Below, one piece after another: positions 35,224-51,429 of a stretch of DNA of 64,000 nucleotides (position 1 is the stretch's first letter; the number at the start of each line of letters is the position of its first letter). Source of the stretch: Candidatus Poribacteria bacterium. GTDB taxonomy: Bacteria > Poribacteria > WGA-4E > PCPOR2b. The position numbers and the translations under genes are program-made. The notes below the pieces were generated by a model, which saw only the letters and a list, made by a program, of their open reading frames with translations, made no database searches and had not been told where the DNA came from. The stretch spans positions 1,312,001 to 1,376,000 of the forward strand of contig OZ244042.1 of assembly GCA_965215015.1 (NCBI GenBank), written 5' to 3'.

Positions 35224-35355
35224 GGTTTTACGCACTCTGCAACATAAGAAGAAGAGCTAAAGCAGATTAGAAAATTGAAAAAGGTAACATTTTCCACGCG
35301 AAAAATGCCAAAGTTGTTTCCATTTCAGAATTGAGCGTCTTATCGTGATTAGGTC

Positions 35356-35380
35356 GTAGGGGCAAGCCTTGTGCTTGCCC
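35356..35380. repeat. GTAG-type REP palindrome
   Basis: GTAGGGGCAAGCCTTGTGCTTGCCC; related copy GTAGGGGCAACCCTGGCGGTTGCCC at 55336-55360. Confidence 0.65.
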
Positions 35381-35516
35381 TTTTTTTATGGTTTCTATCT
35401 CATTGATTGGAAAAGTAATATTTTACCCATTTTCCACGCGAAAATATCAAATTGTTGCCATATCGGGGTCGAGAGTGTTGTTGACCGTTCATTGTATTAC
35501 AAATAATTACATTCTT

Positions 35517-38500
35517 GTTTCAATCTCATACTTGAGATTCTTATCGTTGGTTGTCGGCTGTTACCGTTGGTGGCAATATCAGCATCAAACATGTTTCAAT
35601 CTCATACTTGAGGTTCTTATCGTTGGTTGACGAAAGCCAGCCTCCAATGAAGCCTAAAATCGTGTGGTTTCAATCTCATACTTGAGATTCTTATCATTGG
35701 TTGATATACGAATCTTTCGCCTCGTTGTCGCCTTCAACGTTTCAATCTCATACTTGAGATTCTTATCATTGGTTGCAACGATAGCTGGCATCGGCATGAA
35801 CATGAAAATGTGTTTCAATCTCATACTTGAGATTCTTATCATTGGTTGTCGCATGACGGTAAACGCCACGACGGGGGCGCTGGATGTTTCAATCTCATAC
35901 TTGAGATTCTTATCATTGGTTGTGGACGGAGGCAAATCAAAGGAGATTTGATGAATGTAACATTAGTTTCAATCTCATACTTGAGATTCTTATCATTGGT
36001 TGGTTATGTATGCGCTAGATAGTCTCTACGACGTAGATGGTTTCAATCTCATACTTGAGATTCTTATCATTGGTTGTCATTATGAATTGTAACACGAATC
36101 AACCCCATCCGTCGTTTCAATCTCATACTTGAGATTCTTATCATTGGTTGCCGAGCGTCGGGGCAATCGCATCCGCCCCCCGGTAGGTTTCAATCTCATA
36201 CTTGAGATTCTTATCATTGGTTGATCGCATGAACACCGCCACCGCAGGCGCGGTCGTGCATGTTTCAATCTCATACTTGAGATTCTTATCATTGGTTGCC
36301 AGATCGAACCCGTGTCCCGTACTTTTATCGAAGAGTTTCAATCTCATACTTGAGATTCTTATCATTGGTTGACTGCCAACTGGGGCGACGGCGACATGTG
36401 GAAATTAGTTTCAATCTCATACTTGAGATTCTTATCATTGGTTGCACAGGAACGGGGGCTAACCATCACCCCTTGACAAATGTTTCAATCTCATACTTGA
36501 GATTCTTATCATTGGTTGGACGCTCCCGCGTTGACTGCGATGACCACCCTCGGTATGTTTCAATCTCATACTTGAGATTCTTATCATTGGTTGTGATGGA
36601 CGGCGTTGATTTAATGCACCATGCGCTTGAAGTTTCAATCTCATACTTGAGATTCTTATCATTGGTTGAGCGCCGTTGCATTCACGAATATGCCCTCATC
36701 CTGTAGTGTTTCAATCTCATACTTGAGATTCTTATCATTGGTTGATTCAGGCGTCATAACGGTAATTGCAATGCACGATAGTTTCAATCTCATACTTGAG
36801 ATTCTTATCATTGGTTGTCCTTAAACTCTGCGTTCAAAATCGAAAACAAATGACTAAAGTTTCAATCTCATACTTGAGATTCTTATCATTGGTTGAGTCA
36901 AGTCTCTCATTCAAACATATGCTCTCAGACCAGTTTCAATCTCATACTTGAGATTCTTATCATTGGTTGAGCCTTGGCTTCAGCTTTGACCTCGTCGCTG
37001 AAGTATAGTTTCAATCTCATACTTGAGATTCTTATCATTGGTTGGTAACTCTTGCGTAATACACGAAACGCATGACCGTTGTTTCAATCTCATACTTGAG
37101 ATTCTTATCATTGGTTGTAAGAATGAAGACTAGTAGGGACGAGATATACGTAAGTTTCAATCTCATACTTGAGATTCTTATCATTGGTTGCGTAGACATT
37201 TATGTCTACGTTTCGTCTACACTTGTCGTTTCAATCTCATACTTGAGATTCTTATCATTGGTTGATGAAGCGACGGCGGATGTGGAGTCAAAATCAATCT
37301 TGTTTCAATCTCATACTTGAGATTCTTATCATTGGTTGCCTTAGCAAATGTATCAGAAAAAGGTGATATTCTCCAGTTTCAATCTCATACTTGAGATTCT
37401 TATCATTGGTTGTAGATACGCTTTTTCGGTTTGATGCTTGACGTTGTTGTTTCAATCTCATACTTGAGATTCTTATCATTGGTTGGCCCTCTGGTGATTG
37501 ACTCACACGAGGTAGCACTGAAGTTTCAATCTCATACTTGAGATTCTTATCATTGGTTGGCATTTTTACTTGACTTGTGTAACGTCATATGTTATAAGTT
37601 TCAATCTCATACTTGAGATTCTTATCATTGGTTGTCCGCCGACGAGGTCTTAAATGCACAGTTACAAGAGAGTTTCAATCTCATACTTGAGATTCTTATC
37701 ATTGGTTGATGGTCTACGAAGATATGCGAGCGAGGCTTCTGAAAGTTTCAATCTCATACTTGAGATTCTTATCATTGGTTGTGAACCGCAGCAAATGGAA
37801 AGAACAGTACCGGTTCAAGTTTCAATCTCATACTTGAGATTCTTATCATTGGTTGTGTCGCTTCACGACCGTCGGGGGCAGGCGTGGGTCGGTTTCAATC
37901 TCATACTTGAGATTCTTATCATTGGTTGATATGCCATCGGCATCGTGTCGTCTATCCATCTGCTGTTTCAATCTCATACTTGAGATTCTTATCATTGGTT
38001 GGCATTTTTACTTGACTTGTGTAACGTCATATGTTATAAGTTTCAATCTCATACTTGAGATTCTTATCATTGGTTGCCAATTCGGGGACGTCCCCGACCT
38101 TGGGGGCGACGGCTATTTATGTTTCAATCTCATACTTGAGATTCTTATCATTGGTTGCTTGCCTCCGTCGGCGCAGCCGACACACGGATTAGCGTTTCAA
38201 TCTCATACTTGAGATTCTTATCATTGGTTGCTGATCAGAGTGCATCCCGTATGCCATCTCGTAAAAGAGTTTCAATCTCATACTTGAGATTCTTATCATT
38301 GGTTGTGAGAGAGAATGCACGAGGTATCCAAAACTCAATCAAAGGTTTCAATCTCATACTTGAGATTCTTATCATTGGTTGCAAACTCGGCGACGGCGGC
38401 AGTAAAAGCCGTTTTCCGTTTCAATCTCATACTTGAGATTCTTATCATTGGTTGAGGGACGGTTTCGACCGTCCCTTTTCGTAGAGATTTGTTTCAATCT

Positions 38501-39040
38501 CATACTTGAGATTCTTATCATTGGTTGTTCAATTCGTTCAGTGGGACGCCAAAGGCGTTTATAGTTTCAATCTCATACTTGAGATTCTTATCATTGGTTG
38601 CGATAGGCACGCCTTCACTCGTCGACTTGCACCGCGTTTCAATCTCATACTTGAGATTCTTATCATTGGTTGCCGCGAGTATACTTTCGTAGCATACCAG
38701 TAACACCAATGTTTCAATCTCATACTTGAGATTCTTATCATTGGTTGCAGGTATAGACGCACTCAAAAATTACCTCACGGGTGTTTCAATCTCATACTTG
38801 AGATTCTTATCATTGGTTGAGATTGTGGTTCCTGACGCGGATGGACGTAAGAAAATGTTTCAATCTCATACTTGAGATTCTTATCATTGGTTGAGTCCGT
38901 AAGCGTATCAGTCAACGCAAGACCCTCGAAGTTTCAATCTCATACTTGAGATTCTTATCATTGGTTGTGCAGAAGTAAACGACCCCAAGAAAACGGCTAT
39001 CATGTTTCAATCTCATACTTGAGATTCTTATCATTGGTTG
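35517..39040 (-). CRISPR. Type I-D CRISPR array: 48 repeats of 37 bp, 47 spacers
   Basis: Repeat GTTTCAATCTCATACTTGAGATTCTTATCATTGGTTG (transcribed form ends ATTGAAAC); variant repeats at the 35517 trailer end; leader side faces cas2. Confidence 0.98.
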
Positions 39041-39260: not shown

Positions 39261-39533
39261 TTACACAATGTACGATTTTCTGTCAACCTCTTTTTCTACG
39301 CCAATCCGTTCAATTCCTTTCTCGCAAGACCGGCATAAGTGGTAGAAGGTCACAGAATCCTCCTGTAGGTTGATGGCTTCCATAAGCCGATACTGCAAAC
39401 GAAGGTAGGCACGTCGATCGGTATTGCACTCAAATAGGCTATATTGGATGCGTTTGCCGAAATCCAGCAAAATTTTGGCAACCGCGTTTCGCCTCCGGTC
39501 ATTGGTAATATCATAGGCAACTGCGTAAAACAT
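39261..39533 (-). CDS. cas2: CRISPR-associated endonuclease Cas2
   Basis: AYDI..DRRR, RIQYSLFEC. Confidence 0.97.
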   Translation of the reverse strand: MFYAVAYDITNDRRRNAVAKILLDFGKRIQYSLFECNTDRRAYLRLQYRLMEAINLQEDSVTFYHLCRSCEKGIERIGVEKEVDRKSYIV

Positions 39534-39638: not shown

Positions 39639-41276
39639 TCATCGCACTGTCAGGGGCGTATAGGTTTCAATCTCTCCTATTAGACACTTGGCAAGCAATC
39701 GTACCTGTAATTCCAAAGCGCGGCGAAAGATAATTTTGTACTTGAAAACAGGGTGTGTAATCGTCTCATTTTTACGCTTCTCGTAGGCGGCGTAAAACTT
39801 CTTACGAGCAGGGTCTTTGAGGAACCAACCGCCGTGGGATTGGGTAAAATCGTCTGGCGTGATTTGCCGATTGTTGATGAGTGTTATCACAACCGAATCG
39901 GCGATAATCGGGCGAAATTCTTCCATCAGGTCCAGTGCGAGGCAGGGACGCCCATAAGTCTGTTGGTGGAAAAAGCCAACATAGGGATCAAGGCCGACGA
40001 TCTGGATTGCGGAGATAACATCTGCGGTCAGCAGGGAGTAGGCAAAACTGAGCAGGGCGTTGGTTGGATCTTTGGGAGGCCGCCGCGTCCGATGTTCAAA
40101 ACCGAACCCCATCTCCGCATTCAGCATTGATGAGAAAGATCGAAAATAGGCCGCCGATGCGTTTCCCTCAAACCCAAGCAATTCAGACAGATTCTCTGCT
40201 TTAGGGAGGTGCCCTCGCATTTTCTGCATCCCCGCGATACTTGATTCGATAGTGGCTTCTTCAGCGTCTGTTTCGGTCTTACCTCGCCATTTCCGACGTT
40301 GGAGCATCAACCGCATGTTACTAATTTTACCATGCACGAACGCCTTCGCAAGCGCGAGGCACTTGTCTGGGGCGTCTGCGACCCGATGTTGGGCGACACG
40401 CAGGAGTGAGTTCCGGGATATTTGGGGCATCAGTGTCCCCTGATAACGTCCGTATGCGGACAGGTAAACAACGGGAATCCCTTCGTTGAGTAAGGTCTGC
40501 ATCACTGGGGTTGTCACGCTGATGTTTCCGCAAAGCACAACTTGCCCAAGGTGAATGAGCGGGATGTCACGGATGGTTGCTCCCTCTTTGACCACGAGTA
40601 GACGTTCCCCAGTCTTTTTGAGGAGGCAGCCCGACTCATCAACATACAACACGTTGTCAATGCCGAGAGTGGGCTTAATTCGTTTGGGCCGGTCGTCCAG
40701 TTTATTAAGATAGGCAACCTCGTCTGGCAAGCAGATACCCCGGACGCTACACCCGTTGCAGCGGTTGTCGTGGACAGGTTCAGGGATCTTTCTGGTCTGC
40801 AACAACGATTCAGCGTCCGAGACAAAGGCGCGACTGATCTGCCGCAATTCGGCGTTAAAGACAACCTTGCGGCGGCGTTTGGAACCGATGTAGTAGATAT
40901 AACCATGTGGGACCATAGCACCAGTACTCTCTTCGATCAGCATTCCTTGCAGACAGAGTTGGACTTGATCGTTGAGCCAGTTGCCGGTGCCGGCTTTCTT
41001 GTATTCGACCGGATACGGCACACCGTCCTTCTCTTCAATCAGATCGAGATAACCGGCGACACCAAGAGCGTCAGAAGCGAGATATTGCCGACGAGAGACC
41101 TTCGTTCCGCGTTCGTTGCGGTCTTTCATCGCTATATCGACACGGGCATGTTTTATCTTCCCTTCTTCAACATGCTCGTTAATTATCTGATGCCCCTCAA
41201 CGGATTCGTAGTAAAATCGGCGTGGACAGAAAACGTAGGTGTTTATCTGCGAAAGTGGTATGTAGGTTTCGGACAT
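39639..41276 (-). CDS. cas1: Fused Cas4-Cas1
   Basis: N-terminal Cas4 (FCPRR, D...PVEYK, Q...Q, CNGCS..IC) joined to Cas1 (GFEG, RRPP.DP.NALLSF.Y, GFFH, LDLMEEFR). Confidence 0.95.
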   Translation of the reverse strand: MSETYIPLSQINTYVFCPRRFYYESVEGHQIINEHVEEGKIKHARVDIAMKDRNERGTKVSRRQYLASDALGVAGYLDLIEEKDGVPYPVEYKKAGTGNWLNDQVQLCLQGMLIEESTGAMVPHGYIYYIGSKRRRKVVFNAELRQISRAFVSDAESLLQTRKIPEPVHDNRCNGCSVRGICLPDEVAYLNKLDDRPKRIKPTLGIDNVLYVDESGCLLKKTGERLLVVKEGATIRDIPLIHLGQVVLCGNISVTTPVMQTLLNEGIPVVYLSAYGRYQGTLMPQISRNSLLRVAQHRVADAPDKCLALAKAFVHGKISNMRLMLQRRKWRGKTETDAEEATIESSIAGMQKMRGHLPKAENLSELLGFEGNASAAYFRSFSSMLNAEMGFGFEHRTRRPPKDPTNALLSFAYSLLTADVISAIQIVGLDPYVGFFHQQTYGRPCLALDLMEEFRPIIADSVVITLINNRQITPDDFTQSHGGWFLKDPARKKFYAAYEKRKNETITHPVFKYKIIFRRALELQVRLLAKCLIGEIETYTPLTVR

Positions 41277-41619: not shown

Positions 41620-41975
41620 ACTTTGAAACAGTTGAAAGAAACAGCCAAAAATTTGTTCTTGTCCCGATGGAACAGTATAATCAACTCCTCGCCGATCTGG
41701 AGATGTTAAGAGACGCCCATGATTTTCGTGGATCGAAATCCGTTGACGAGGAAACCTTCCCCGACGAGGTAATTAATCGGTTGATTCTCAATGAGGAGAA
41801 TCCAATCAAGGTCTACCGAGAGTACCGGGGAATCACACAGAAACAACTTGCAGATAAAATCAGCATTCAACGTGGATATCTAGCAGAGATTGAGACAGGA
41901 CGAAAGTCCGGTTCCATCAAAACGTTGAAAGCAATTGCTGAGGCACTTAATATCGATTTGATGTCAATCCTGTAA
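41616..41975 (+). CDS. XRE/HTH antitoxin (HigA-like)
   Basis: ATGA coupling to the toxin; NPIKVYRE.RG.TQ.QLA...YLAEIETG HTH. Confidence 0.88.
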   Translation: MNFETVERNSQKFVLVPMEQYNQLLADLEMLRDAHDFRGSKSVDEETFPDEVINRLILNEENPIKVYREYRGITQKQLADKISIQRGYLAEIETGRKSGSIKTLKAIAEALNIDLMSIL

Positions 41976-42821
41976 GCGAGATTCTTGTCGTCGTGTCTGT
42001 CCCATCCCCATCGTCGTTTTGTAGCCGGTGCCGCAATAGAACGCGAAGTCGGCGAGCAAATTTGCCAAACGTAACATCTCAGTATCCCCCTTACCATTGG
42101 GTTGACGCTCCATGAAAAATTGGTATGCACAACGTCCAACAAATCCGATCGCCTTATGTTTGCCGAAATCGAGCATCCGGCTTTTGCTCTCTACTGCGGT
42201 CAGCCCGGCGTAACGTGCCACGAAATCGAGAAGGGGCTGCTTATCAATCTGCATCGGGGCGAAGATATTCCATTTGTTGACCCAACTTTGATAGCAGCGC
42301 ACGAGGCTTATATGCGATTGATTGCGCGTTTTTTGCCCACGCGGCGACAGTTCCCTAAAGGCAGTCGGCGAATGGAATCGTACCTGCAGCCGAGGGGCTG
42401 TCCTCGTAGATTCAATCAGATCCTCGTAGGTAGTATTTCCGCTCCAAGCGTTCGTTTCTGTCCTAGATGCAACCAAGCGACTGAGTTGGAAGGTTGCCCT
42501 CCCGAGGCGAATGGATGGCAGTTGCTGCGTAAAGAAGGCGTTGCCGAAGTGGGCGAAAAGTGCATCGTCAAGGAATGTGAAGCGAAGCCAGCATTCTGTC
42601 CCAGCGCGGATTCGCAGGAAATTACCACGTCGCTCCCCTTTGCTAATCAGTGGCGAAACGGTGAACGGTTTCTGCCCTGAGGTCGCGTGGACTTCCTCCG
42701 CTTTTTCTGGGTTGCCAATTCGCAACAGTGACAGGAGCGCGGCGTGGGCGTGGTGGCCCATCGTCGGACGTAGGATGGCATCTTCGGGGGGAATGAGGTA
42801 AATGACGGTGCTGATGGGCAT
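41964..42821 (-). CDS. cas6: CRISPR-associated endoribonuclease Cas6
   Basis: KPFTVSPL, F.SPTAF and Gly-rich GTGYKTTMGMG. Confidence 0.95.
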   Translation of the reverse strand: MPISTVIYLIPPEDAILRPTMGHHAHAALLSLLRIGNPEKAEEVHATSGQKPFTVSPLISKGERRGNFLRIRAGTECWLRFTFLDDALFAHFGNAFFTQQLPSIRLGRATFQLSRLVASRTETNAWSGNTTYEDLIESTRTAPRLQVRFHSPTAFRELSPRGQKTRNQSHISLVRCYQSWVNKWNIFAPMQIDKQPLLDFVARYAGLTAVESKSRMLDFGKHKAIGFVGRCAYQFFMERQPNGKGDTEMLRLANLLADFAFYCGTGYKTTMGMGQTRRQESRLQD

Positions 42822-42832
42822 GGTAAGCCTTT

Positions 42833-43531
42833 CTAATCAGTTGAGTTCGCAAAGTATCTCATTGTGGCTGGCAAACAAACGGTCTCTTGCTCGCTCTGAA
42901 ACGCGACATACTCACCTGTCAAAGTCACATTTTGAAGTAGACTAACCGGCGGCATTGAAATGAGATCATAGAGTTGTGGTCGAATCGAAAGATCTAGCGG
43001 ATTCAATAAGTGAGAACATGTAAATTTACCTCGTTGAATGGTTAATTCTTGACAATCTTTGATTTCGATTTTTGCCTTGCTCATCCATAATCCTAATCGA
43101 ATCCACCCCGGCACCCGTTCGGGCAATTCACCGACGATGAAAAACTCAAACTCGCTCTCCGGCGCAAGTTCCTTCGCCTTGCCGAAAGATGGTTTGTTCG
43201 TCACCGTGATCCCTAACTCCCTTTTTCGCTTATTTCCGACGGTTGAAAATGGACGATGTCGATTGTCTGCGAATTTGAAAGTGCTGATTACATAATCGTA
43301 ATGAATTGGTTTGGCGGGTGTTATATAAACACCTGCCGCATTGATTGGTGTAAGATCCTCCTGATAAGTTGGAATGCTGTCAAGTGACCTATACGGCTTT
43401 TGGCTCAAGCCGAGCGCATACGTCAACGCCCAATTGTGGATGACCTTTTCCGTCTCGTACAGGCGCCCCATCTCACGAGTCGCGTAGTAGAGCGAATCGT
43501 GCAGGATAAGACGACATCTCGTAACTTGCAC
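42833..43531 (-). CDS. cas5d: Type I-D Cas5 (Csc1)
   Basis: LHDSLYYATREMGRLYET, HNWALTYALG, WIRLG.WMSKA. Confidence 0.93.
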   Translation of the reverse strand: MQVTRCRLILHDSLYYATREMGRLYETEKVIHNWALTYALGLSQKPYRSLDSIPTYQEDLTPINAAGVYITPAKPIHYDYVISTFKFADNRHRPFSTVGNKRKRELGITVTNKPSFGKAKELAPESEFEFFIVGELPERVPGWIRLGLWMSKAKIEIKDCQELTIQRGKFTCSHLLNPLDLSIRPQLYDLISMPPVSLLQNVTLTGEYVAFQSEQETVCLPATMRYFANSTD

Positions 43532-43552: not shown

Positions 43553-44548
43553 TTAGTTTGATGCCTTTTGAATCACTCGTTTGGAGTATTCCTGCGTCTC
43601 GGCGTTTGCCTCCTGCAAGAATTGATGAAGTTTTTCTTCATCCGTCATTGCCGCCTTAACGATACCAAGTAACTTTCGCAGGTTGTCTCCCTCAAGTAAA
43701 TGGTAGTTCACACTGTCATCCTTCAAGAGCTCGGATATAGTTGATTGAGCCCTTTGAAAAACTTTCGCAGGATTCAGCAGCGCATCGTCCTTGGCGTTGC
43801 CCAACGCATCGTGGATTGCTTGCGTGAGTTTAAGATTTGAAAAGATCTCACCATCAGCAAATACCGCTCCGACGATATGATTGGCAAGTCGGCCGGTTCG
43901 CGTCGTCTGCGCGCCGTAACGTTTCGTTCGCAGCACATTGTTCAAAACGTAGGCGAAACTGTTGACCGTTACATCCTTAATGGTAATGACAGAGGGAAAG
44001 AAAACTTGTGGTACGATATGGTCTTGCTCTCCGAAACCAGATTGTTGTGTGCCCTCCTGAGTCATTGTCCCTTTTTCATAGAGCGCATTAAACGTAAACT
44101 GCTGATGCGATTTATCATAACCCGTAATTGAATAGGCGGTATCAACATACACCTTTGATTTTTCGGAACCGGATTCGCCAATCGCAAAACCGTAGTAAAT
44201 GCAGTCGGGGCAGGTTGTGCAGAACTTCTCATTATAATCACAGTAATTATCTTTCTCAGTATCTTCATTCTGTGTAATACCTATGCTTCTCAGCAATTCA
44301 CGTCCGGTAAGTCGTTCTGGCGAACTCTGTTTTCGCTTGAACATTGCAAGGCGGATGAGCGGCTTACCATTTTGCAAACCTCCATTGACCTTAGCAAGGT
44401 TGAGCGTACCATCTGTTTGAAAGACGGAAAATGACTCCGTTTCACGAATCATAATCAGATGGGCATAATGCCCTGTCGGAGCTTTCGGAATTTGATTCAA
44501 AAAACTATTTTCGGGAACGAGATCTTTCGGGATTTCAATTATCGGCAT
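43553..44548 (-). CDS. cas7d: Type I-D Cas7 (Csc2)
   Basis: FKRKQ..PERL.GRELLR, C..CPDCI.YGFAIG, YGAQ.TRTG. Confidence 0.95.
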   Translation of the reverse strand: MPIIEIPKDLVPENSFLNQIPKAPTGHYAHLIMIRETESFSVFQTDGTLNLAKVNGGLQNGKPLIRLAMFKRKQSSPERLTGRELLRSIGITQNEDTEKDNYCDYNEKFCTTCPDCIYYGFAIGESGSEKSKVYVDTAYSITGYDKSHQQFTFNALYEKGTMTQEGTQQSGFGEQDHIVPQVFFPSVITIKDVTVNSFAYVLNNVLRTKRYGAQTTRTGRLANHIVGAVFADGEIFSNLKLTQAIHDALGNAKDDALLNPAKVFQRAQSTISELLKDDSVNYHLLEGDNLRKLLGIVKAAMTDEEKLHQFLQEANAETQEYSKRVIQKASN

Positions 44549-44981
44549 TGTTGTCCTCCTTTGCCTTTTTCATTTGGAATTGACGCCAATTCACCTGATA
44601 CCATGCGTTGACACCCGCATTAAAGCGGTTGCGTGCCTGACGAAGCAAAGCACGCTCGCCCTCGTAAGACACCATGAAAATCTCATCGTAGAAATACTCG
44701 ACGAAATCGTGAATTGCGGATGCTTCCTCAGCCCGGTCAAGTCGATAGCCTCCTTGGGCACTACCTGACCGAATCAGTCGCATCAAGTTATTCACTTCTC
44801 CAATCATTTGGTACTTCAGATCAGTTGGACAGATTTTCGGCTCACTGTTGATAATTACATCTTCAACCCTCGTAATCACCTTCAAGACACTGTTAGGTGT
44901 GAAATTATGCCTGCTAGTCCTGTGATTATACGTACTGTAGAACTTGAAGCATCGCTTACTAACCCCCTCAATGAAACTCAT
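44535..44981 (-). CDS. cas11d: Cas11d small subunit from an internal in-frame start in cas10d (148 aa)
   Basis: GGAGG 7 nt upstream of the in-frame ATG (MSFIEG...); known arrangement in type I-D. Confidence 0.7.
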   Translation of the reverse strand: MSFIEGVSKRCFKFYSTYNHRTSRHNFTPNSVLKVITRVEDVIINSEPKICPTDLKYQMIGEVNNLMRLIRSGSAQGGYRLDRAEEASAIHDFVEYFYDEIFMVSYEGERALLRQARNRFNAGVNAWYQVNWRQFQMKKAKEDNNADN

Positions 44982-47522
44982 TTTGTCACCTCCAACGTGT
45001 TGGTAGTTTTGAATATATCGCTCTGGAATTGATGGTTCTCCGTCACGTGGTTTCGGGAAATTGTCCCACTTGTTTTTGCGCCTAAACGCCTCCATGTAGT
45101 GAAATACATACAGCGGATCGGTATCAATATTACGGACGATTTCATTCAAGTGTTGCCACTGCGGCTTCCCGTCTTTTTGGAAAACGTCAATATTAATGTC
45201 ATAACTCGCCGCAACCTTTCGCAATGCGGGCTCAATTTCATCAATGCGAAGTTTATCCTCCCCAAGAATATGGCGTACAAAGGAATGTGGCGCGTTGAGA
45301 ACCACTGTTTCCTTCCACTCCTCGCTACTATGATAAAGCGGAATCTGCGACTCCGTCACAACGACCTTCGTATTGAACACTAACGGCATAAGCAGACCGA
45401 GAAAAGTCGGCACCGCCCATGATTCGGTATCAGTGGGGTTTTTGCCAGGCGTCGGGATTCCACAGAAGTAGAAGGTTGCAAGGTCATTAGCGTCGAACTC
45501 CATCTTGAGCAGATAATCATCATCAGGGCTCGGGATTGCGGTGTCAATAGCCATTTTATCTAAGTTGATGAAATCGTTCACTGTCATTCCTTTATGTAGG
45601 GCTTTGCGGACATCAAAGAAATTGAGATTTTTCAAGCGATGATACATAGCACCGGCAAACTCCGCTGTTTCCGTTGTAAAGAAGTAACTTGGATAAAGAT
45701 AAAGCCACTTAATTTTCACGTCGTCGTATCCTTTGCCAACCAGATTCAGTTTAGACCGTATCATAATTTGACGTAGCATCATTTCGATCTCGCACAATTC
45801 ACAGATGCCGCGAACGAGCAGTGAGGAATTGAGCAAGTTCTTGTTGCTGTAGACTTGGTTGGTAAAGATGACCGACGTTTTTTTTTGCCGGCTAGTCTCG
45901 AACGTTGACGAACAGAGCGAACAACCTGCGTTTGATCCACGTCCTTTCTTTTTTGTGTTGGTGTATTTGTCCAATTCCGCTTCAAAGTTGCGTTCAATCT
46001 CACCGTGTCCGTTGATATCAACGATTTGTTGAACATATTCGCGGAGTACCCTAAACCCTTCTTTCTCTATCTCGTGACGTTCAATTTCTTCCTCAAATGT
46101 CACCACAACCTGATTTGCAATGTCTGCAAACAAATCCTCCATCTGATTTGGGTCAAGCCCACGATTTTTCACCAGATATTTGCCTGCGAGGAAATACCAA
46201 TGTAGCGGTACTCCGCCTGCCCGATTATCGCGTGGAATTGCTTCAAAGTCGGTCTGATATTCTTGCATATCCAAGATTTTAACTATCTCAGAAGACACCA
46301 CCTCACGACTCGTTATTATACCAACATGTTTCTCAATTTCATTGAGATACTCCGCAAGTTGGTCAACCCGCATATCCTCTTCAAAATGGAGATTGACATC
46401 GGGGGAAATATCAGTCCTTTCCTGAAGTTGAAGCATCTTCTGTAGGCGCTTTCCAGCAGAGGGGGACTTGTTCTCATGGAGTATCCTGAAGCAGCCGACC
46501 CTGATGAGTTTTAACAATTGTGGAATTTGGAAGAAATCGTAATAGTAATCGGGAAACTTGAATCCCTTTCCATCTCGAGTAAATCCGTTGAGATTTTCTT
46601 CTAACCGACCGGCACAGGATGCGATGAGCTGCTTTTCAATATTCTCGGCAATTTCATCCTGCGTCGGCAAGGCAACCTCTGTGCTCGATTGTTCTCGCAA
46701 ATATGTGACGCCTGTTGGAAAAAATAGGAATGGCTCCCATCCCAGTTGGTCACGCAAGATTCTGAGTAGAGTGTTGTTAATGACGTTTGTAATCATACCG
46801 CGATTCTCGGCGAGTTTGTGATAGGCAAATTCAAGTTTTCCACCGCTGAGTATAACAAGAGATTCACGGACATTCGCCTGCTCTCGAAATCCACTCGGAT
46901 TTTTCAGGAAATAAGCGATGAGATCTGATGCCGTACACATCTTGCACAAATACTGACGTCGCCGCTTTGGCAAACGCAAATCGTAACTTCGTAAATTGAG
47001 ATTTGCACCGTATCTTTTGTGCGTGTTGAGAATGAGATATCCAATATCCCCGCGATAATCTGCGTAATCTGGACAGAATCTATCAAAATGGAGTTTCGAG
47101 ATCCATTCGTCAACGTAGGAATAAAACCGTTCGGACTTCTCTGCGTCGGAGACACTCAAATCACGGATGCCCTCAAGCTTATCGATGTCATGAAGCGAAT
47201 AAGCGATCAGATAGATCTGTTTTTCTAATTCATTTAACGGTTGCCCGGCCCTTTGTACAATCCTAAGCGTTGGGAAGATGCCGTTCAGAATATGTGTGAG
47301 CATACTTTGATCATGCTTATATGCCCAACCTGTGCTTCCTTTTGCCGGCCGGAGCGTATACTCTTCCAGCATTTGCGGCACGACCATTTCAACGTAATCT
47401 CTCAAGACGAAATTGTTTGGGCCAACGGCGTTTTTCAGCAATGCGATTTGTGCGTGGATTTCTTGTGTTTCTTGGAAACTCTCTGAAATCCCCATGAAAT
47501 CAAGTTCAAGTTGTTCAACCAT
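44535..47522 (-). CDS. cas10d: Type I-D Cas10d (Csc3) with N-terminal HD nuclease
   Basis: DQSM.THILNG...LHD HD domain; CSLCS...C.LC zinc motif. Start at 47522 after AGGAGG (ORF track 47618). Confidence 0.93.
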   Translation of the reverse strand: MVEQLELDFMGISESFQETQEIHAQIALLKNAVGPNNFVLRDYVEMVVPQMLEEYTLRPAKGSTGWAYKHDQSMLTHILNGIFPTLRIVQRAGQPLNELEKQIYLIAYSLHDIDKLEGIRDLSVSDAEKSERFYSYVDEWISKLHFDRFCPDYADYRGDIGYLILNTHKRYGANLNLRSYDLRLPKRRRQYLCKMCTASDLIAYFLKNPSGFREQANVRESLVILSGGKLEFAYHKLAENRGMITNVINNTLLRILRDQLGWEPFLFFPTGVTYLREQSSTEVALPTQDEIAENIEKQLIASCAGRLEENLNGFTRDGKGFKFPDYYYDFFQIPQLLKLIRVGCFRILHENKSPSAGKRLQKMLQLQERTDISPDVNLHFEEDMRVDQLAEYLNEIEKHVGIITSREVVSSEIVKILDMQEYQTDFEAIPRDNRAGGVPLHWYFLAGKYLVKNRGLDPNQMEDLFADIANQVVVTFEEEIERHEIEKEGFRVLREYVQQIVDINGHGEIERNFEAELDKYTNTKKKGRGSNAGCSLCSSTFETSRQKKTSVIFTNQVYSNKNLLNSSLLVRGICELCEIEMMLRQIMIRSKLNLVGKGYDDVKIKWLYLYPSYFFTTETAEFAGAMYHRLKNLNFFDVRKALHKGMTVNDFINLDKMAIDTAIPSPDDDYLLKMEFDANDLATFYFCGIPTPGKNPTDTESWAVPTFLGLLMPLVFNTKVVVTESQIPLYHSSEEWKETVVLNAPHSFVRHILGEDKLRIDEIEPALRKVAASYDINIDVFQKDGKPQWQHLNEIVRNIDTDPLYVFHYMEAFRRKNKWDNFPKPRDGEPSIPERYIQNYQHVGGDKMSFIEGVSKRCFKFYSTYNHRTSRHNFTPNSVLKVITRVEDVIINSEPKICPTDLKYQMIGEVNNLMRLIRSGSAQGGYRLDRAEEASAIHDFVEYFYDEIFMVSYEGERALLRQARNRFNAGVNAWYQVNWRQFQMKKAKEDNNADN

Positions 47523-49611
47523 TAGAATTCTCCTCCTTTGCCCAAATGTAGGGTTGAGAGTATAACAAGAGCGCGTCCTTTGAAAATACAACGCTGAATT
47601 CATTTCCATCCGGATCAAGCAGTGAAAATATGGAAAACATCATCGGTAGGCGTAATATCCGCCGTAAATCACCCACCGGCGCTTTATGAATAAGGCACAG
47701 AAGCGGTTTTACGCGCAACCGACGATTGACTCTGTTAACTGCTGGAAAATCGCCATCAATTTGAAACCCCTTGAGTGTATGCAATTGACGATAATTATCA
47801 TCAGTAAACTGCTCTCCAATCTTACGGCTTTGAGTCAGGCGAAAACGCTCTTGTTCTGAGCGATATTCGCGTAACCGCAAATAGACATCAACGTACCGAA
47901 ACTTACGGGACGGGATGTCTCGCGATTGGCATTCGCGCATAAAATTTGCCTTTTCCATGTATTCAACTTCTGCATTCTGTAACACCCACAACAGATTGTA
48001 ATCTTTGATTTCACCGTCGGTTTCGTCGATGATACCGCAGGTAAAAGGGGGTTCTCCACGAAATTGAATGACACCAGAATCAATGATTTCCGGCTGTCGC
48101 TTTTTGACAGCGAAATACCATTTCGTCGATCGCGTTTCAATATCGGTCTCGAAAATGTCGGAATAGACCTTTGTAAGTATTTCTCGCTGTGGTGCATAGT
48201 TTTCACGCAATCGTGGATGTCCCAAAGTGTTGATAATATGTGATGCGTGTAGCCAACCCCAGCACTTTCGATAGCTGCGAAAATCGTTGATGGGCGAGAA
48301 AATTCGTTTATCTTCATCCTCACTTCGCATGAGGTCAGTTAGAGTCGCCTTGTCCATTTCCGAATCCGGGGTGACGATTTGTTCAACCCGTTCGTAAACG
48401 TATTTGGGCAGAAGCGAGTGAGCAACGAAACGATTAAACTTCATAACTGTTCCATCAGGTTTTTCATATTCTGAATGCCGCCCAAGTCGTCCAAGCCTCT
48501 GAATCCACGAACCTGCATCTATTGCCTCAAAGACAAGGAAGTTGATTTTGAAGTCAACGCCGACATCCACCGTTGAGGTCCCGATGAGTAGGTCACTTTC
48601 GTAAAGAGCAAAGCGTCGTTCTTCCTGCCCGCTGAGTCCAGTACTTTCGCCAACATTCAGAGGGAAATCTCCTGCCACGTTTCGCTCTTTGAGAAACGAG
48701 GAAATCCTTTTCGCCGCTGCAACCGAGTTAACGATAATAGCCCCGCGTGAGCTCGGATTCTCAGCAAACCATTCGGCGATTTGTTGATAATGGCTTTCAA
48801 CCCATTCCTCGGTACGGCGACCTGTCGCGTGGAAATTCAAATCGAATGGCGCGCAGATTCTGTCCCAATTTACTGAATCCTGTTCGCCGGATTGATAACA
48901 CCCTTCGATGGTTTTACACCGGAGGTTCGCCTTTTCCAAACAATCCAGTAGGAGTGGGTTGGGTGTAGCAGAGAGAAAGACGAACTTTTTCTGATCAGAT
49001 TTACCACGCCTTTGCTCGATGAAATACAGCATTGTTGTCAGAACAGAGATGACTTGTGACACATCGTAAATATGAAATTCGTCAAAGACGAAAAGATCAT
49101 AAGAATCGATAATATACTGTACCAACTGATCTGGGTTTTCATATTCAGGGTTCAGGTAGTGAAAATTGGCGATCAGATTAAAAATATCAGGATTTGTAAG
49201 TAGAATTGGATTCTCTTGAGCCAAAAGTTCAATCGAGGCTTTTTGCCCGCGTAAATCCTTCAATTCTTCACGAAGTTCATACAACCGCTCCCCAAACATC
49301 TTATCACGGGCAATATCTTGCTCAAACTGCTGGCAGTATCCCTGCACTTGCCGTTCTTGATCTTTAATCAATTCGTTAGTTGGATACATGGCTAGAATTG
49401 GCCTGTCCTCGGTCAACGCGGGGAGATATGCGGCTAAACTTTTTCCGTCGCCGGTCATTGCGACGTTAAAAACAACATCAACACCAGGATCATTGATAGC
49501 CTCGTAAGTCTCAATCTGGTGTTGTCGAAGTTCAAGACCTTCAGGGCTATTTTCAATAGGCGTAGCTTCTGCCTTTCGAGAGTAAACGGGTTTGACGCTA
49601 ACTTTGATCAT
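47515..49611 (-). CDS. cas3: Type I-D Cas3' helicase (no HD domain)
   Basis: AMTGDGKSLA, FDEFH, LSATP, TVDVGVDF and QRLGRLGRH motifs; start after GGAGG. Confidence 0.95.
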   Translation of the reverse strand: MIKVSVKPVYSRKAEATPIENSPEGLELRQHQIETYEAINDPGVDVVFNVAMTGDGKSLAAYLPALTEDRPILAMYPTNELIKDQERQVQGYCQQFEQDIARDKMFGERLYELREELKDLRGQKASIELLAQENPILLTNPDIFNLIANFHYLNPEYENPDQLVQYIIDSYDLFVFDEFHIYDVSQVISVLTTMLYFIEQRRGKSDQKKFVFLSATPNPLLLDCLEKANLRCKTIEGCYQSGEQDSVNWDRICAPFDLNFHATGRRTEEWVESHYQQIAEWFAENPSSRGAIIVNSVAAAKRISSFLKERNVAGDFPLNVGESTGLSGQEERRFALYESDLLIGTSTVDVGVDFKINFLVFEAIDAGSWIQRLGRLGRHSEYEKPDGTVMKFNRFVAHSLLPKYVYERVEQIVTPDSEMDKATLTDLMRSEDEDKRIFSPINDFRSYRKCWGWLHASHIINTLGHPRLRENYAPQREILTKVYSDIFETDIETRSTKWYFAVKKRQPEIIDSGVIQFRGEPPFTCGIIDETDGEIKDYNLLWVLQNAEVEYMEKANFMRECQSRDIPSRKFRYVDVYLRLREYRSEQERFRLTQSRKIGEQFTDDNYRQLHTLKGFQIDGDFPAVNRVNRRLRVKPLLCLIHKAPVGDLRRILRLPMMFSIFSLLDPDGNEFSVVFSKDALLLYSQPYIWAKEENSNG

Positions 49612-49742
49612 CCCAAGCCTCCATTTCATCAGATTTTCCAGTAACCGAGAACATGATAACATACAACCAATCACACAAACCTGCGCCTGATCGAAAAAAA
49701 ATTCCGTCGAATCTCATTTTTGTTAAAATTTTTTGGAAAGAT

Positions 49743-49827
49743 CTGACCTATCTTGAGTTGAATGCTATAATAACGGCGTGCAGGACCGAACCTGCCCTTG
49801 GCGGTAGATGTAAGCCCCGCTTTTTTT
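49743..49827 (+). ncRNA. Candidate small antisense RNA (promoter, hairpin, terminator) in the cas leader
   Basis: CTGACC-17-TATAAT with extended TG; GCAGG/CCTGC hairpin; GCGG/CCGC stem plus T7. Confidence 0.45.
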
Positions 49828-49919
49828 ATGAGATTCGTCTTTTCAAGAATTGGGACGAAATACTGATGGTTTTTCATGTGCAGTTATGTGCAAATTCATC
49901 AATATAAATTGTATACAGA

Positions 49920-49948
49920 ATACTAACATAACATTGGATAAAATGCAA
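49920..49948 (-). promoter_or_regulatory. Predicted promoter of the cas3'-cascade operon
   Basis: TTGCAT-17-TAGTAT with extended TG on the minus strand. Confidence 0.65.
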
Positions 49949-49950
49949 CG

Positions 49951-50121
49951 AAAAAATAAAGGCTCCTGCATTAACTGAGCCGGTGAGCCTCTATTGCCAA
50001 CTAACTCAAAATTGAGATTCTTTTAGAAACATTGCATAAAACATAATACCAACATCTTTCAATCTCGCTCTTCATCGAGAGTCTTTTCATCATGATAACA
50101 CAATCTGTCCTTCTTGGTCAA
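49951..50121 (-). ncRNA. CRISPR-like regulatory RNA (degenerate mini-array, CreR/CreA-like)
   Basis: Promoter TTGACC-18-TATCAT; degenerate repeat 50056-50096 ending ATTGAAAG; short spacer matching the cas promoter; second degenerate repeat about 49997-50033; AGGCTC/GAGCCT hairpin plus T tract. Confidence 0.8.
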
Positions 50122-50328
50122 GAGAAGAATCAGGCATTTTGCCCTGGTGCTGGAATGCACTTTTTCACTCCAGCTTACCATCAGTATCCCTCGGAGCTGT
50201 AGAAAAAAAAACCGCATCCGTCCCGCCTTTCTTTCTTTCCAATTCCCAACCGCCAGCGAATTATGCGATCAAGCGTACTTTATGAATCCCATCTTCCAAT
50301 CTTTGATCTTCTCTCCCTCCTTTCATTC

Positions 50329-51300
50329 TTAATTCTTTCGATACACCTCTACCATCTTCTCCGCTGTCTCCACGACCCATTCCCGTAATTCCTTGGGTTC
50401 GATCACCTCTGCCTCATCTCCCCAACCCAAAACCCACCAGCCGACTTCCAGCCAGCCCGCGACTGTGGCTTCAAAACGAAGACCTCCATCAGCGTTTTCG
50501 TGTATCTGCTGTGTCGAATGCCAGCTCACCTCTCGGATGAGAGGCGCGATACGTGGCGCGAACTCAATGGCGACGTGCGTTTCCAGCCCAAGCCTAAAAT
50601 CCCAACTCTTCTCCATGTACTTTTGTACAGAGAAATCTACGGGGATTGTGTAGGGAAGATGGCTGATAAAGAGAGAGTGGATGCGGCTGATACGGAAGGT
50701 CAGAATCTGATTCAACTGTTCAGCATGTCCAATCACATACCAAGCATGTTTGCGAAACAGGATTGCATACGGTGAGAGTCGATGCTGCTCGCGCTTCCCA
50801 CTGCTGAAAGAATTATACGCCATGTTGACCTTGCGCCGTTCCCGAATCGCTTCGTATAGCTTCTCTTTATGCAGTTGTGTTTCATCGATTTGGCTGACCT
50901 GTTGATGTGGGACTTCAATTTGGGGGGCAATCTGATCTAGGGTTTGGTTTGTTTGCTTCGGTAAATCGGAGGTAATCTTATGGATGGCACTATTGAGGCC
51001 CTCTATCGCCTGCTCCCCTTCCGCTGCCTGATAAAAACGGGCTGCTGTAATGAGCGCGAGTGCCTCGTCAAAGTTAAGGTTGAGGGCAGGGAGGAAAAAG
51101 TCGGAGACCATTTCATATCCCTGTTTTCCGCGTGGAATAATCTCGATGCCCATTTCACACAGCAGGTTAATATCGCGCTGGATGGTTGCTCTGTTGACCC
51201 CAAGACGTACTGCCAACCGAGGCCGTGTCCACCGACGGGGTTGGTTGTGGATTAGGGAGGCAACTTCAAGGATCCGTGCCATCTGATATTTTCGGTACAT
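50329..51300 (-). CDS. WYL-domain transcriptional regulator (HTH-WYL-WCX)
   Basis: LA..LGV..ATIQRDI HTH; L.PY......WYVIG...FRISRI; GDEAEVIEP. Confidence 0.92.
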   Translation of the reverse strand: MYRKYQMARILEVASLIHNQPRRWTRPRLAVRLGVNRATIQRDINLLCEMGIEIIPRGKQGYEMVSDFFLPALNLNFDEALALITAARFYQAAEGEQAIEGLNSAIHKITSDLPKQTNQTLDQIAPQIEVPHQQVSQIDETQLHKEKLYEAIRERRKVNMAYNSFSSGKREQHRLSPYAILFRKHAWYVIGHAEQLNQILTFRISRIHSLFISHLPYTIPVDFSVQKYMEKSWDFRLGLETHVAIEFAPRIAPLIREVSWHSTQQIHENADGGLRFEATVAGWLEVGWWVLGWGDEAEVIEPKELREWVVETAEKMVEVYRKN

Positions 51301-51429
51301 GATTTCTTTTCGGTGCTCTTTTGGGTGTAGAAGCCTTGCTTCTAACAATAACCACTAAATTTATTGTCAACCCACTATTGCTCTGATATGTTAAAAGCAT
51401 TCACGGTGCTGCACAAGAACTGTTCACTG

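Follow-up and report, generated by a model that had tools for sequence, protein, structure and literature searches.

We analyzed a 64-kb window of bacterial DNA (contig OZ244042.1 of assembly GCA_965215015.1, positions 1,312,001 to 1,376,000 of the forward strand) and found, upstream of its type I-D CRISPR operon, a pair of degenerate repeats that enclose a spacer-like segment, followed by a promoter-like element that carries a partial match to that segment. The sequence gives good support to the view that this unit belongs to the local type I-D system as a regulatory mini-array derived from CRISPR, and that it encodes a CRISPR RNA (crRNA)-like RNA of the CreR/CreA class. At the core of this reading, a crRNA-like RNA processed by Cas6 would guide the type I-D Cascade to a GTT-flanked site of 15 nucleotides (nt) and block a promoter there without cleavage, and we put the probability of this core at about 0.85. 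The full statement adds that the blocked promoter feeds into the cas genes, i.e., that the system partially autoregulates its own cas expression; for the whole we estimate an about even chance.

Every element of a hidden mini-CRISPR that an earlier note had read from this DNA proved to be present on the minus strand:

50121-50092, minus strand: promoter of the mini-array, TTGACC-18-TATCAT (10/12 matches in a promoter scan, with a TG before the -10)
50096-50056, minus strand: psiR1, the first degenerate repeat, with a hairpin at 50080-50063 and the end ...GAGATTGAAAG
50055-50034, minus strand: spacer-like segment of 22 nt, whose bases 1-15 (50055-50041) are the pairing part
50033-49997, minus strand: psiR2, second of the degenerate repeats, whose hairpin is weak (20/37 ungapped identities to the array repeat)
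49996-49951, minus strand: intrinsic terminator of the mini-array (-16.1 kcal/mol, z = -3.78, then a U run)
49948-49920, minus strand: targeted promoter-like element, with a -35 TTGCAT at 49948-49943, a 17-nt spacer and a -10 TAGTAT at 49925-49920
49915-49932, minus strand: GTT (49932-49930) and 15-nt protospacer (49929-49915)

Two repeat-like units surround one spacer-like stretch beside a cas locus of the same repeat family; psiR1, upstream, keeps the handle nucleotides, psiR2, downstream, keeps the hairpin core, and these cores stand in the right order, strand, and spacing. Read in crRNA sense, the repeat of the local CRISPR array ends ATTGAAAC (also given as ...GAGATTGAAAC). The final 11 nt of psiR1 are identical to it at 10/11 positions, and the presumed 5' handle of the crRNA, the last 8 nt of psiR1 (50063-50056, ATTGAAAG), matches at 7/8. 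The psiR1 hairpin comprises 5 base pairs (-5.4 kcal/mol), and both bases of its stem-closing pair differ from the array repeat with pairing retained. psiR2 holds an exact 11-mer of the array repeat, the hairpin core, at 50022-50012. Taken singly, neither degenerate repeat has a significant ungapped identity, and 30 windows with 20/37 identities lie outside the array in the 64 kb. On both strands of the 5.94-Mb genome, the 10-mer at the end of psiR1 has 61 copies outside the array, and the 11-mer of psiR2 has 10. That the two should stand ~45 nt apart, on one strand and beside cas3', is not expected by chance.

The mini-array promoter is one of only two promoter-like sites reported by a scan of 49400-50500, and the terminator was overlooked by a simple terminator scan because its loop is long. 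The earlier note had also expected array finders to miss the unit, and Tandem Repeats Finder and a repeat-family tool indeed picked up neither degenerate repeat. Folding of the whole mini-array transcript stays at the level of shuffled sequences (z = -0.14) because A and U runs pair, so that the local folds alone are informative. Rfam returned sub-threshold matches only, including CRISPR-DR47 at 15.7 bits on psiR1 and other DR families on the true array, and thus no support either way. A search of viral contigs with one 23-nt handle-plus-spacer stretch gave no exact match, a single exact pattern that could miss relatives.

The pairing part of the spacer and the protospacer, 126 nt downstream, are identical at 13/15 positions, with mismatches only at positions 6 and 12; both this match and the GTT at its head are as previously described. 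The protospacer-adjacent motif (PAM) of type I-D systems is GTN (PMC9123187, PMC10212523), so what we see is a PAM-proximal partial match of at least 10 nt with the PAM of the subtype, the form of target looked for in mini-arrays. Across the whole genome, a full match at all 13 pairing positions occurs at the target and, apart from the spacer itself, nowhere else, and GTN precedes none of the sites with one mismatch (0/6). The three bases ahead of the spacer, AAG, do not form a PAM. In type I-D, every sixth base is flipped out and a mismatch there is tolerated, with the flips said in a review to start "at position one" (PMC10212523); unlike in that wording, our count from the PAM makes 6 and 12 the free positions. 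The mismatch pattern fits what would be expected of a Cascade that leaves these two positions free.

Co-variation of spacer and target in homologous type I-D loci had been named in the earlier note as a check, and we observed it across 19 Candidatus Poribacteria genomes in which the module recurs. A locus search anchored on the window's own handle and psiR2 core (loci L001-L050) gave 16 distinct spacers, 15 of them with a target no more than 200 nt downstream. All 18 distinct spacer-target pairs from these loci have a GTN PAM (15 GTT, 2 GTG, and 1 GTC), compared with 0/8 of the weaker matches at least 223 nt away. Two extra pairs come from another family (L051 and L053, with GTT and GTG), which brings GTN to 20/20 distinct pairs, whereas the spacer in these pairs is preceded by AAG, AAC, AAT, or AAA, never GTN, the last base of the handle being the variable one.

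The 20 pairs comprise 12 distinct 15-nt spacers and 16 distinct targets. They were selected for at most three mismatches at 13 positions, which inflates the match rate there and leaves only positions 6, 12, and 16-24 unbiased. Under this rule, positions 1, 3, 5, 8, 9, 10, 13, and 14 are matched in 20/20 pairs. Mismatches fall at position 6 in 17/20 pairs and at position 12 in 10/20; they number 3/20 at position 11, 4/20 each at positions 7 and 15, and 1/20 each at positions 2 and 4, with a random expectation of ~0.30 for a match. Beyond the pairing part, positions 16-24 match in 3-10/18 pairs of the 18-pair set. The matched positions are far from invariant: positions 3, 8, 9, 13, and 14 take three different bases each and are always matched, and positions 3, 4, 7, 8, 9, 13, 14, and 15 take three or four bases while matched (position 11 takes two). 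Several different spacers, each with its own matching target and PAM, are what an RNA-guided contact predicts, and what a relic or a coincidence does not.

One genome (G007, loci L012/L038) carries one spacer with two targets on opposite strands, 73 and 165 nt downstream and both behind GTT. These targets flank an extra strong promoter with a short terminator, and one guide may control two promoters there.

The whole module can be aligned in seven species, all of which lack the cargo genes that other relatives carry behind the target. Mean pairwise identity in these seven is 95% for spacer positions 1-15, 91% for the protospacer, and 88% for psiR2, against 44-51% for the flanks; because identity so far exceeds that of the flanks, spacer and protospacer are judged to be under selection even without cargo. 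The hexamers of the mini-array promoter are kept as well (73% mean identity versus 51% for the upstream flank), and so are TTGC and TAnTAT of the targeted element and, in relatives, the mini-array terminator. The 3' end of psiR1 is invariant among relatives; its loop is variable, with insertions. Large changes of this loop were seen in three species, two with tandem handle copies and a third with an insertion of ~70 nt (L005/L039 in G006, L008/L037 in G003, and L006/L045 in G011); the last 11 nt of psiR1 and the spacer are fixed in these variants.

From this anatomy, we infer the following course of events, whose final step, the read-through into cas, we hold most tentatively. Transcription from the promoter at 50121-50092 would give an RNA of ~135 nt that ends at the terminator (49996-49951), and cuts by Cas6 at both degenerate repeats would reduce it to a short spacer between an 8-nt handle and a 3' hairpin. 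With this RNA as its guide, type I-D Cascade would recognize the GTT at 49932-49930, and the guide would pair with the template strand over 15 nt across the -10 box, with positions 6 and 12 unpaired. The bound complex would then block RNA polymerase without licensing cleavage, because pairing ends at 15 nt. In this scheme, the blocked promoter is a distal one, placed in a variable slot between the gene for a WYL regulator and a block of hairpin and proximal promoter. The slot takes cargo genes in relatives and is empty in the window genome, so that the regulated transcript would be a non-coding leader. This leader transcript would most likely read into cas3'-cas10d and add a Cascade-repressible share to cas expression. 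Silencing without cleavage, and a possible sensing of crRNA load or anti-CRISPRs, are carried over by analogy from published work on CreR/CreA.

The stretch between the targeted promoter and cas3' contains the following features:

49914-49612, minus strand: non-coding leader between the targeted promoter and cas3'
49827-49779, minus strand: A-run and hairpin in the leader (-17.9 kcal/mol)
49743-49771, plus strand: opposite-strand promoter CTGACC-17-TATAAT (10/12 matches in the scan, with a TG), which points at the hairpin and its T run
49691-49653, minus strand: proximal block ending in TGT-TATCAT (an extended -10), with 84% identity among relatives

The earlier note had taken the target for the cas operon's own promoter. 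The promoter half of this claim stands, in that a promoter-like -10 is covered by a GTN-flanked site; the link to cas3' is doubtful, since the element lies ~300 nt upstream of the cas3' ATG at 49611 (with a presumed start at ~49913) and the hairpin, the opposing promoter, and the proximal block stand between. Over 49915-49611, a terminator scan gave no canonical sense-strand terminator. Conservation in the 5' part of the leader amounts to just 64%. A 68-codon frame within it (49877-49671) was considered as a small protein or toxin and rejected: it has no Pfam or NCBIfam match, is stopped at codon 13 in two relatives, and is disrupted by frameshifting indels in others. Descent of the leader from a cargo gene of the relatives was likewise rejected, as tblastn found no trace of one in leader or genome and the nucleotide alignment of the 5' part was within the range of shuffles.

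The leader hairpin spans ~50 nt, and 14/15 copies fold more stably in the sense reading than in the antisense. It has 12 consensus pairs, whose variation is mostly through G-U in the sense reading. There is no U tract on the sense side, so termination at the hairpin is not predicted. In relatives without a mini-array, the hairpin directly follows the WYL gene, and in L051 and G005 (L056), a second copy stands upstream of the module, placing a hairpin on both sides of the mini-array and cargo. It could serve as a terminator, as an antisense RNA, or as an insertion site. The hexamers of the opposite-strand promoter are kept among relatives, with the full consensus TTGACA-17-TATAAT in L055, and this promoter would yield a tiny antisense RNA that ends at the T run of the hairpin. 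The proximal block lies ~40 nt before the cas3' start, lacks a good -35, and is not in the scan list. It precedes effector genes in L052, L053, and L055, which are loci without a mini-array, and stands before cas3'-first, cas10d-like-first, and other effector operons in relatives. In L052, for example, the order is WYL gene, hairpin, proximal block, and effector gene. Judged by position and conservation, the block is likely a proximal cas promoter, a site for the WYL regulator, or both.

In 12/20 pairs, the targeted promoter position is followed not by cas but by a cargo gene or short frame. In many relatives, what stands behind the target encodes a 79-amino acid (aa) protein, in some cases lengthened, or a DUF3800 protein, or is a short frame; the hairpin and the proximal block come next. 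The mini-array and its promoter thus have the appearance of an insertion into a slot that is bounded by the WYL gene on one side and, on the other, by the putative proximal promoter of the cas operon itself. No cargo homologue was found by tblastn in the window or genome. DUF3800 is one recurrent cargo. The other, the 79-aa protein (L048:4865-5104, L050:5291-5530, and L043:8139-8378, with longer forms at L051:2645-3118 and L053:2705-3184) is a predicted coiled-coil whose C-terminal motif is conserved; neither Pfam nor PADLOC gave a match, and its Atlas neighbours are weak (0.77) and mostly viral. Elsewhere, the same leader precedes a 730-777-aa protein without a Pfam family (L033:6715-8904, L037:5675-7882, and L038:6551-8878), followed by a ~323-aa protein, and these two replace cas3' or cas10d. 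The effector operon behind the conserved leader is heterogeneous.

Several observations weigh against the reading of a Cascade-guided, partially autoregulated cas operon. The genomes compared are related, so the pairs are not independent events; the match rates are inflated by selection as described; and position 7, mismatched in 4/20 pairs, is a seed position. The -35 of the target is weak, with 3/6 matches to consensus, and on that account the element falls below the scan threshold and is absent from the list of promoters. The feed into cas is called into question by the proximal extended -10 block, which is also found where there is no mini-array, by the stable conserved hairpin and conserved opposing promoter between target and cas3', and by the cargo genes behind the targeted position in relatives. 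In favor of read-through, the leader and cas3' share one strand, with no conserved frame and no canonical terminator in between, and the strong selection on spacer and target in seven cargo-less species would need a useful output.

These points leave room for a reading in which guide and target are real and the product is not cas. The targeted promoter would then make an RNA of ~135 nt (49913 to ~49780) or serve an empty cargo slot, and cas would be transcribed from the proximal promoter near 49660; the mini-array would act in the manner of CreA to guard a slot for cargo or a toxin, and the product would be leader RNA, possibly paired with the opposite-strand RNA. The 79-aa genes, DUF3800 genes, and short frames of relatives speak for it, as does the hairpin, which always follows the upstream gene (cargo or WYL) and favors its sense fold; so do the presence of the proximal block without any mini-array, the second hairpin upstream of the mini-array in L051 and G005, as if the module had been inserted, and the description of type I-D cases as cargo regulation in the article text of PMC10120712. 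However, the window holds no cargo or remnant by tblastn, and the leader's 5' part is not significantly similar to cargo genes at the nucleotide level; relatives do not keep the 68-codon frame intact; the 5' part is poorly conserved; termination at a hairpin without a sense-side U tract is not predicted; and strong conservation in the cargo-less species requires a useful output. We regard this cas-independent role as possible but on the unlikely side. If the mini-array and target once regulated a cargo since lost, they might instead be a decaying relic without effect, in keeping with the empty slot here and with loci reported in the article text of PMC10120712 that have a mini-array and no cargo. 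Decay is hard to reconcile with seven cargo-less species that keep spacer positions 1-15, the protospacer, PAM, psiR2, and both promoters at 73-95% identity against 44-51% in the flanks, and we consider it improbable. Alternatively, the two 15-mers could be direct-repeat operators of a protein such as the neighboring WYL regulator, with the repeat-like flanks incidental; the regulator gene adjoins, and a pair of operators that must both fit one protein would likewise co-vary. Yet the first copy starts exactly one base after the CRISPR 5' handle, between two repeat-like hairpins in all genomes, only the second copy is preceded by GTN, the mismatches fall at positions 6 and 12, and the second target in G007 is inverted, again with GTT. 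This makes protein operators very improbable indeed. We accordingly rank partial cas autoregulation first, then a cas-independent role of the leader or cargo slot, then a relic, and last protein operators or chance.

A variant joins the cargo slot to autoregulation. The mini-array, the Cascade-repressed promoter, and cargo might form an insertable cassette that lands at the ~50-nt hairpin, between the WYL gene and the proximal promoter. In the cargo-less lineage to which the window genome belongs, the leftover promoter would then have been taken over as a Cascade-sensing distal cas promoter, with read-through gated by the hairpin and antisense promoter. We offer this as a speculative and rather unlikely scenario. 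If true, it would give the type I-D operon three layers of control (WYL protein, crRNA-like RNA, and antisense RNA) and provide a route by which the regulator spreads.

Related elements have been described. In the article text of Shmakov et al. 2023 (PMC10120712), type I-D mini-arrays are predicted to target cas10d or cargo promoters, and hot spots of cargo shuffling are reported alongside the cargo-less loci. Those type I-D mini-arrays resemble ours in having two repeat-like units, of which the upstream one is less degenerate, and a short spacer that matches in part, on the seed side; the target has the cognate PAM and sits in a promoter region just downstream, and a variable cargo slot lies near the type I-D cas genes. 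Unlike the cases described in that text, ours has the module upstream of the entire operon and next to a WYL gene, and three conserved elements come after it: the hairpin, the opposing promoter, and the proximal block. The word Poribacteria has 0 occurrences in the text of PMC10120712, a count that does not cover its supplementary locus lists. The same text reports a validated mini-array of type I-F1, from Pseudomonas aeruginosa, which shares with ours a shorter spacer and mismatches of its RNA at positions 6 and 12. It belongs to a different subtype with the PAM CC, and its repression was tested with reporters, requiring Cascade and the RNA but not Cas3; repression at our locus is predicted from sequence.

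According to the texts of 10.1101/2023.03.10.532045 and PMC10120712, partial-match mini-arrays repress promoters in types I-B, I-E, V-A, and I-F1. CreR as described in the former is shown for I-B, I-E, and V-A, and type I-D enters there solely through creA-like elements that were found by hand and are mentioned for a supplementary figure. Like our element, CreR is a degenerate mini-CRISPR in which psiR1 has the handle and psiR2 the 3' part, with ~15 nt of identity to a PAM-flanked promoter site and cas autorepression as the proposed logic. The CreR targets in that text were placed experimentally at the effector gene promoter, unlike the promoter targeted here, whose link to cas is putative and beside which a separate proximal promoter is likely. 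Measured against a target at the effector promoter, our locus has a covered -10 ~300 nt upstream with no predicted sense terminator, but a proximal block that serves loci without a mini-array.

CreTA, reportedly described by Li et al. in 2021, is said to employ a crRNA-like antitoxin RNA that guides Cascade to repress a neighboring promoter via a partial match. Here too, a crRNA-like RNA would guide Cascade to a neighboring promoter via a partial match. In contrast to CreTA, the target in the window is followed by neither a toxin gene nor a conserved small frame, and the cargo of relatives (79-aa and DUF3800 proteins) is without a known toxin signature. In a CreTA-type element, the repressed promoter would drive a toxin gene or a toxic RNA; no conserved frame and no cargo homologue in window or genome takes that place here, although the non-coding leader itself may be toxic.

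The principle embodied in CreR/CreA and regulatory mini-arrays was already published in 2021-2023, type I-D predictions included, and no new category is opened here. For type I-D, a subtype for which the literature searched holds only bioinformatic predictions, the locus supplies a clear example from nature of a crRNA-like regulator. The 20 co-varying pairs amount to a natural mutagenesis series with pairing required over 15 nt, free positions 6 and 12, and a GTN PAM; they bear on the review wording of flips "at position one" (PMC10212523), and such pairing rules could help in designing type I-D repressors that do not cut. The locus also illustrates that the regulated promoter need not equal the cas promoter, as the module occupies a cargo slot with a conserved hairpin and antisense promoter. 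What it adds is the co-variation series, together with this pair of hairpin and antisense promoter.

The window is part of a single-contig 5.94-Mb genome of a sponge-symbiont bacterium, whose close relatives carry the label Candidatus Poribacteria metagenome-assembled genomes. Four sequencing runs compared with the window consist of DNA-like contigs of 14-17 kb that are identical to it. Its type I-D cas gene set is complete and lies on the minus strand, with the CRISPR array beyond it and the regulator gene upstream of the mini-array:

50329-51348, minus strand: gene for an HTH-WYL-WCX transcription regulator (Pfam PF08279, PF13280, PF25583)
47515-49611, minus strand: cas3', the type I-D helicase (open reading frame 47515-49674; TIGR03158, E = 1.3e-74)
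44535-47618, minus strand: cas10d (csc3), NCBIfam/Pfam matches above cut-offs
43553-44548, minus strand: csc2 (cas7), NCBIfam/Pfam matches above cut-offs
42833-43531, minus strand: csc1 (cas5), NCBIfam/Pfam matches above cut-offs
41964-42821, minus strand: cas6, NCBIfam/Pfam matches above cut-offs
39639-41276, minus strand: cas4-cas1 fusion, NCBIfam/Pfam matches above cut-offs
39261-39533, minus strand: cas2, NCBIfam/Pfam matches above cut-offs
~35310-39040, read on the minus strand: CRISPR array of 48-50 repeats, 37 nt each

The assignment to type I-D follows from TIGR03158, TIGR03174, TIGR03157, and TIGR03159, all above their cut-offs, and Cas6 was identified by matches to Pfam PF19308 and PF10040. 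We set the true start of cas3' at the ATG at 49611, behind GGAGG, instead of 49674, because homologues of Cas3' begin at the residues encoded from there. The degenerate trailer repeats of the array are at its low-coordinate end, and the array is therefore read on the minus strand. The position of the WYL gene upstream of the mini-array is kept in relatives. In a genome of another family (G104, locus L029), psiR1-like units of hairpin plus handle, resembling Cas6-type sites, precede tRNA-Val and tRNA-Asp genes at ~1260-1560. Lastly, the Cas4-Cas1 fusion scores 628.6 bits on a Cas4g/Cas1g model with a cut-off of 560, despite the type I-D effector genes, and the adaptation module may be of mixed origin.

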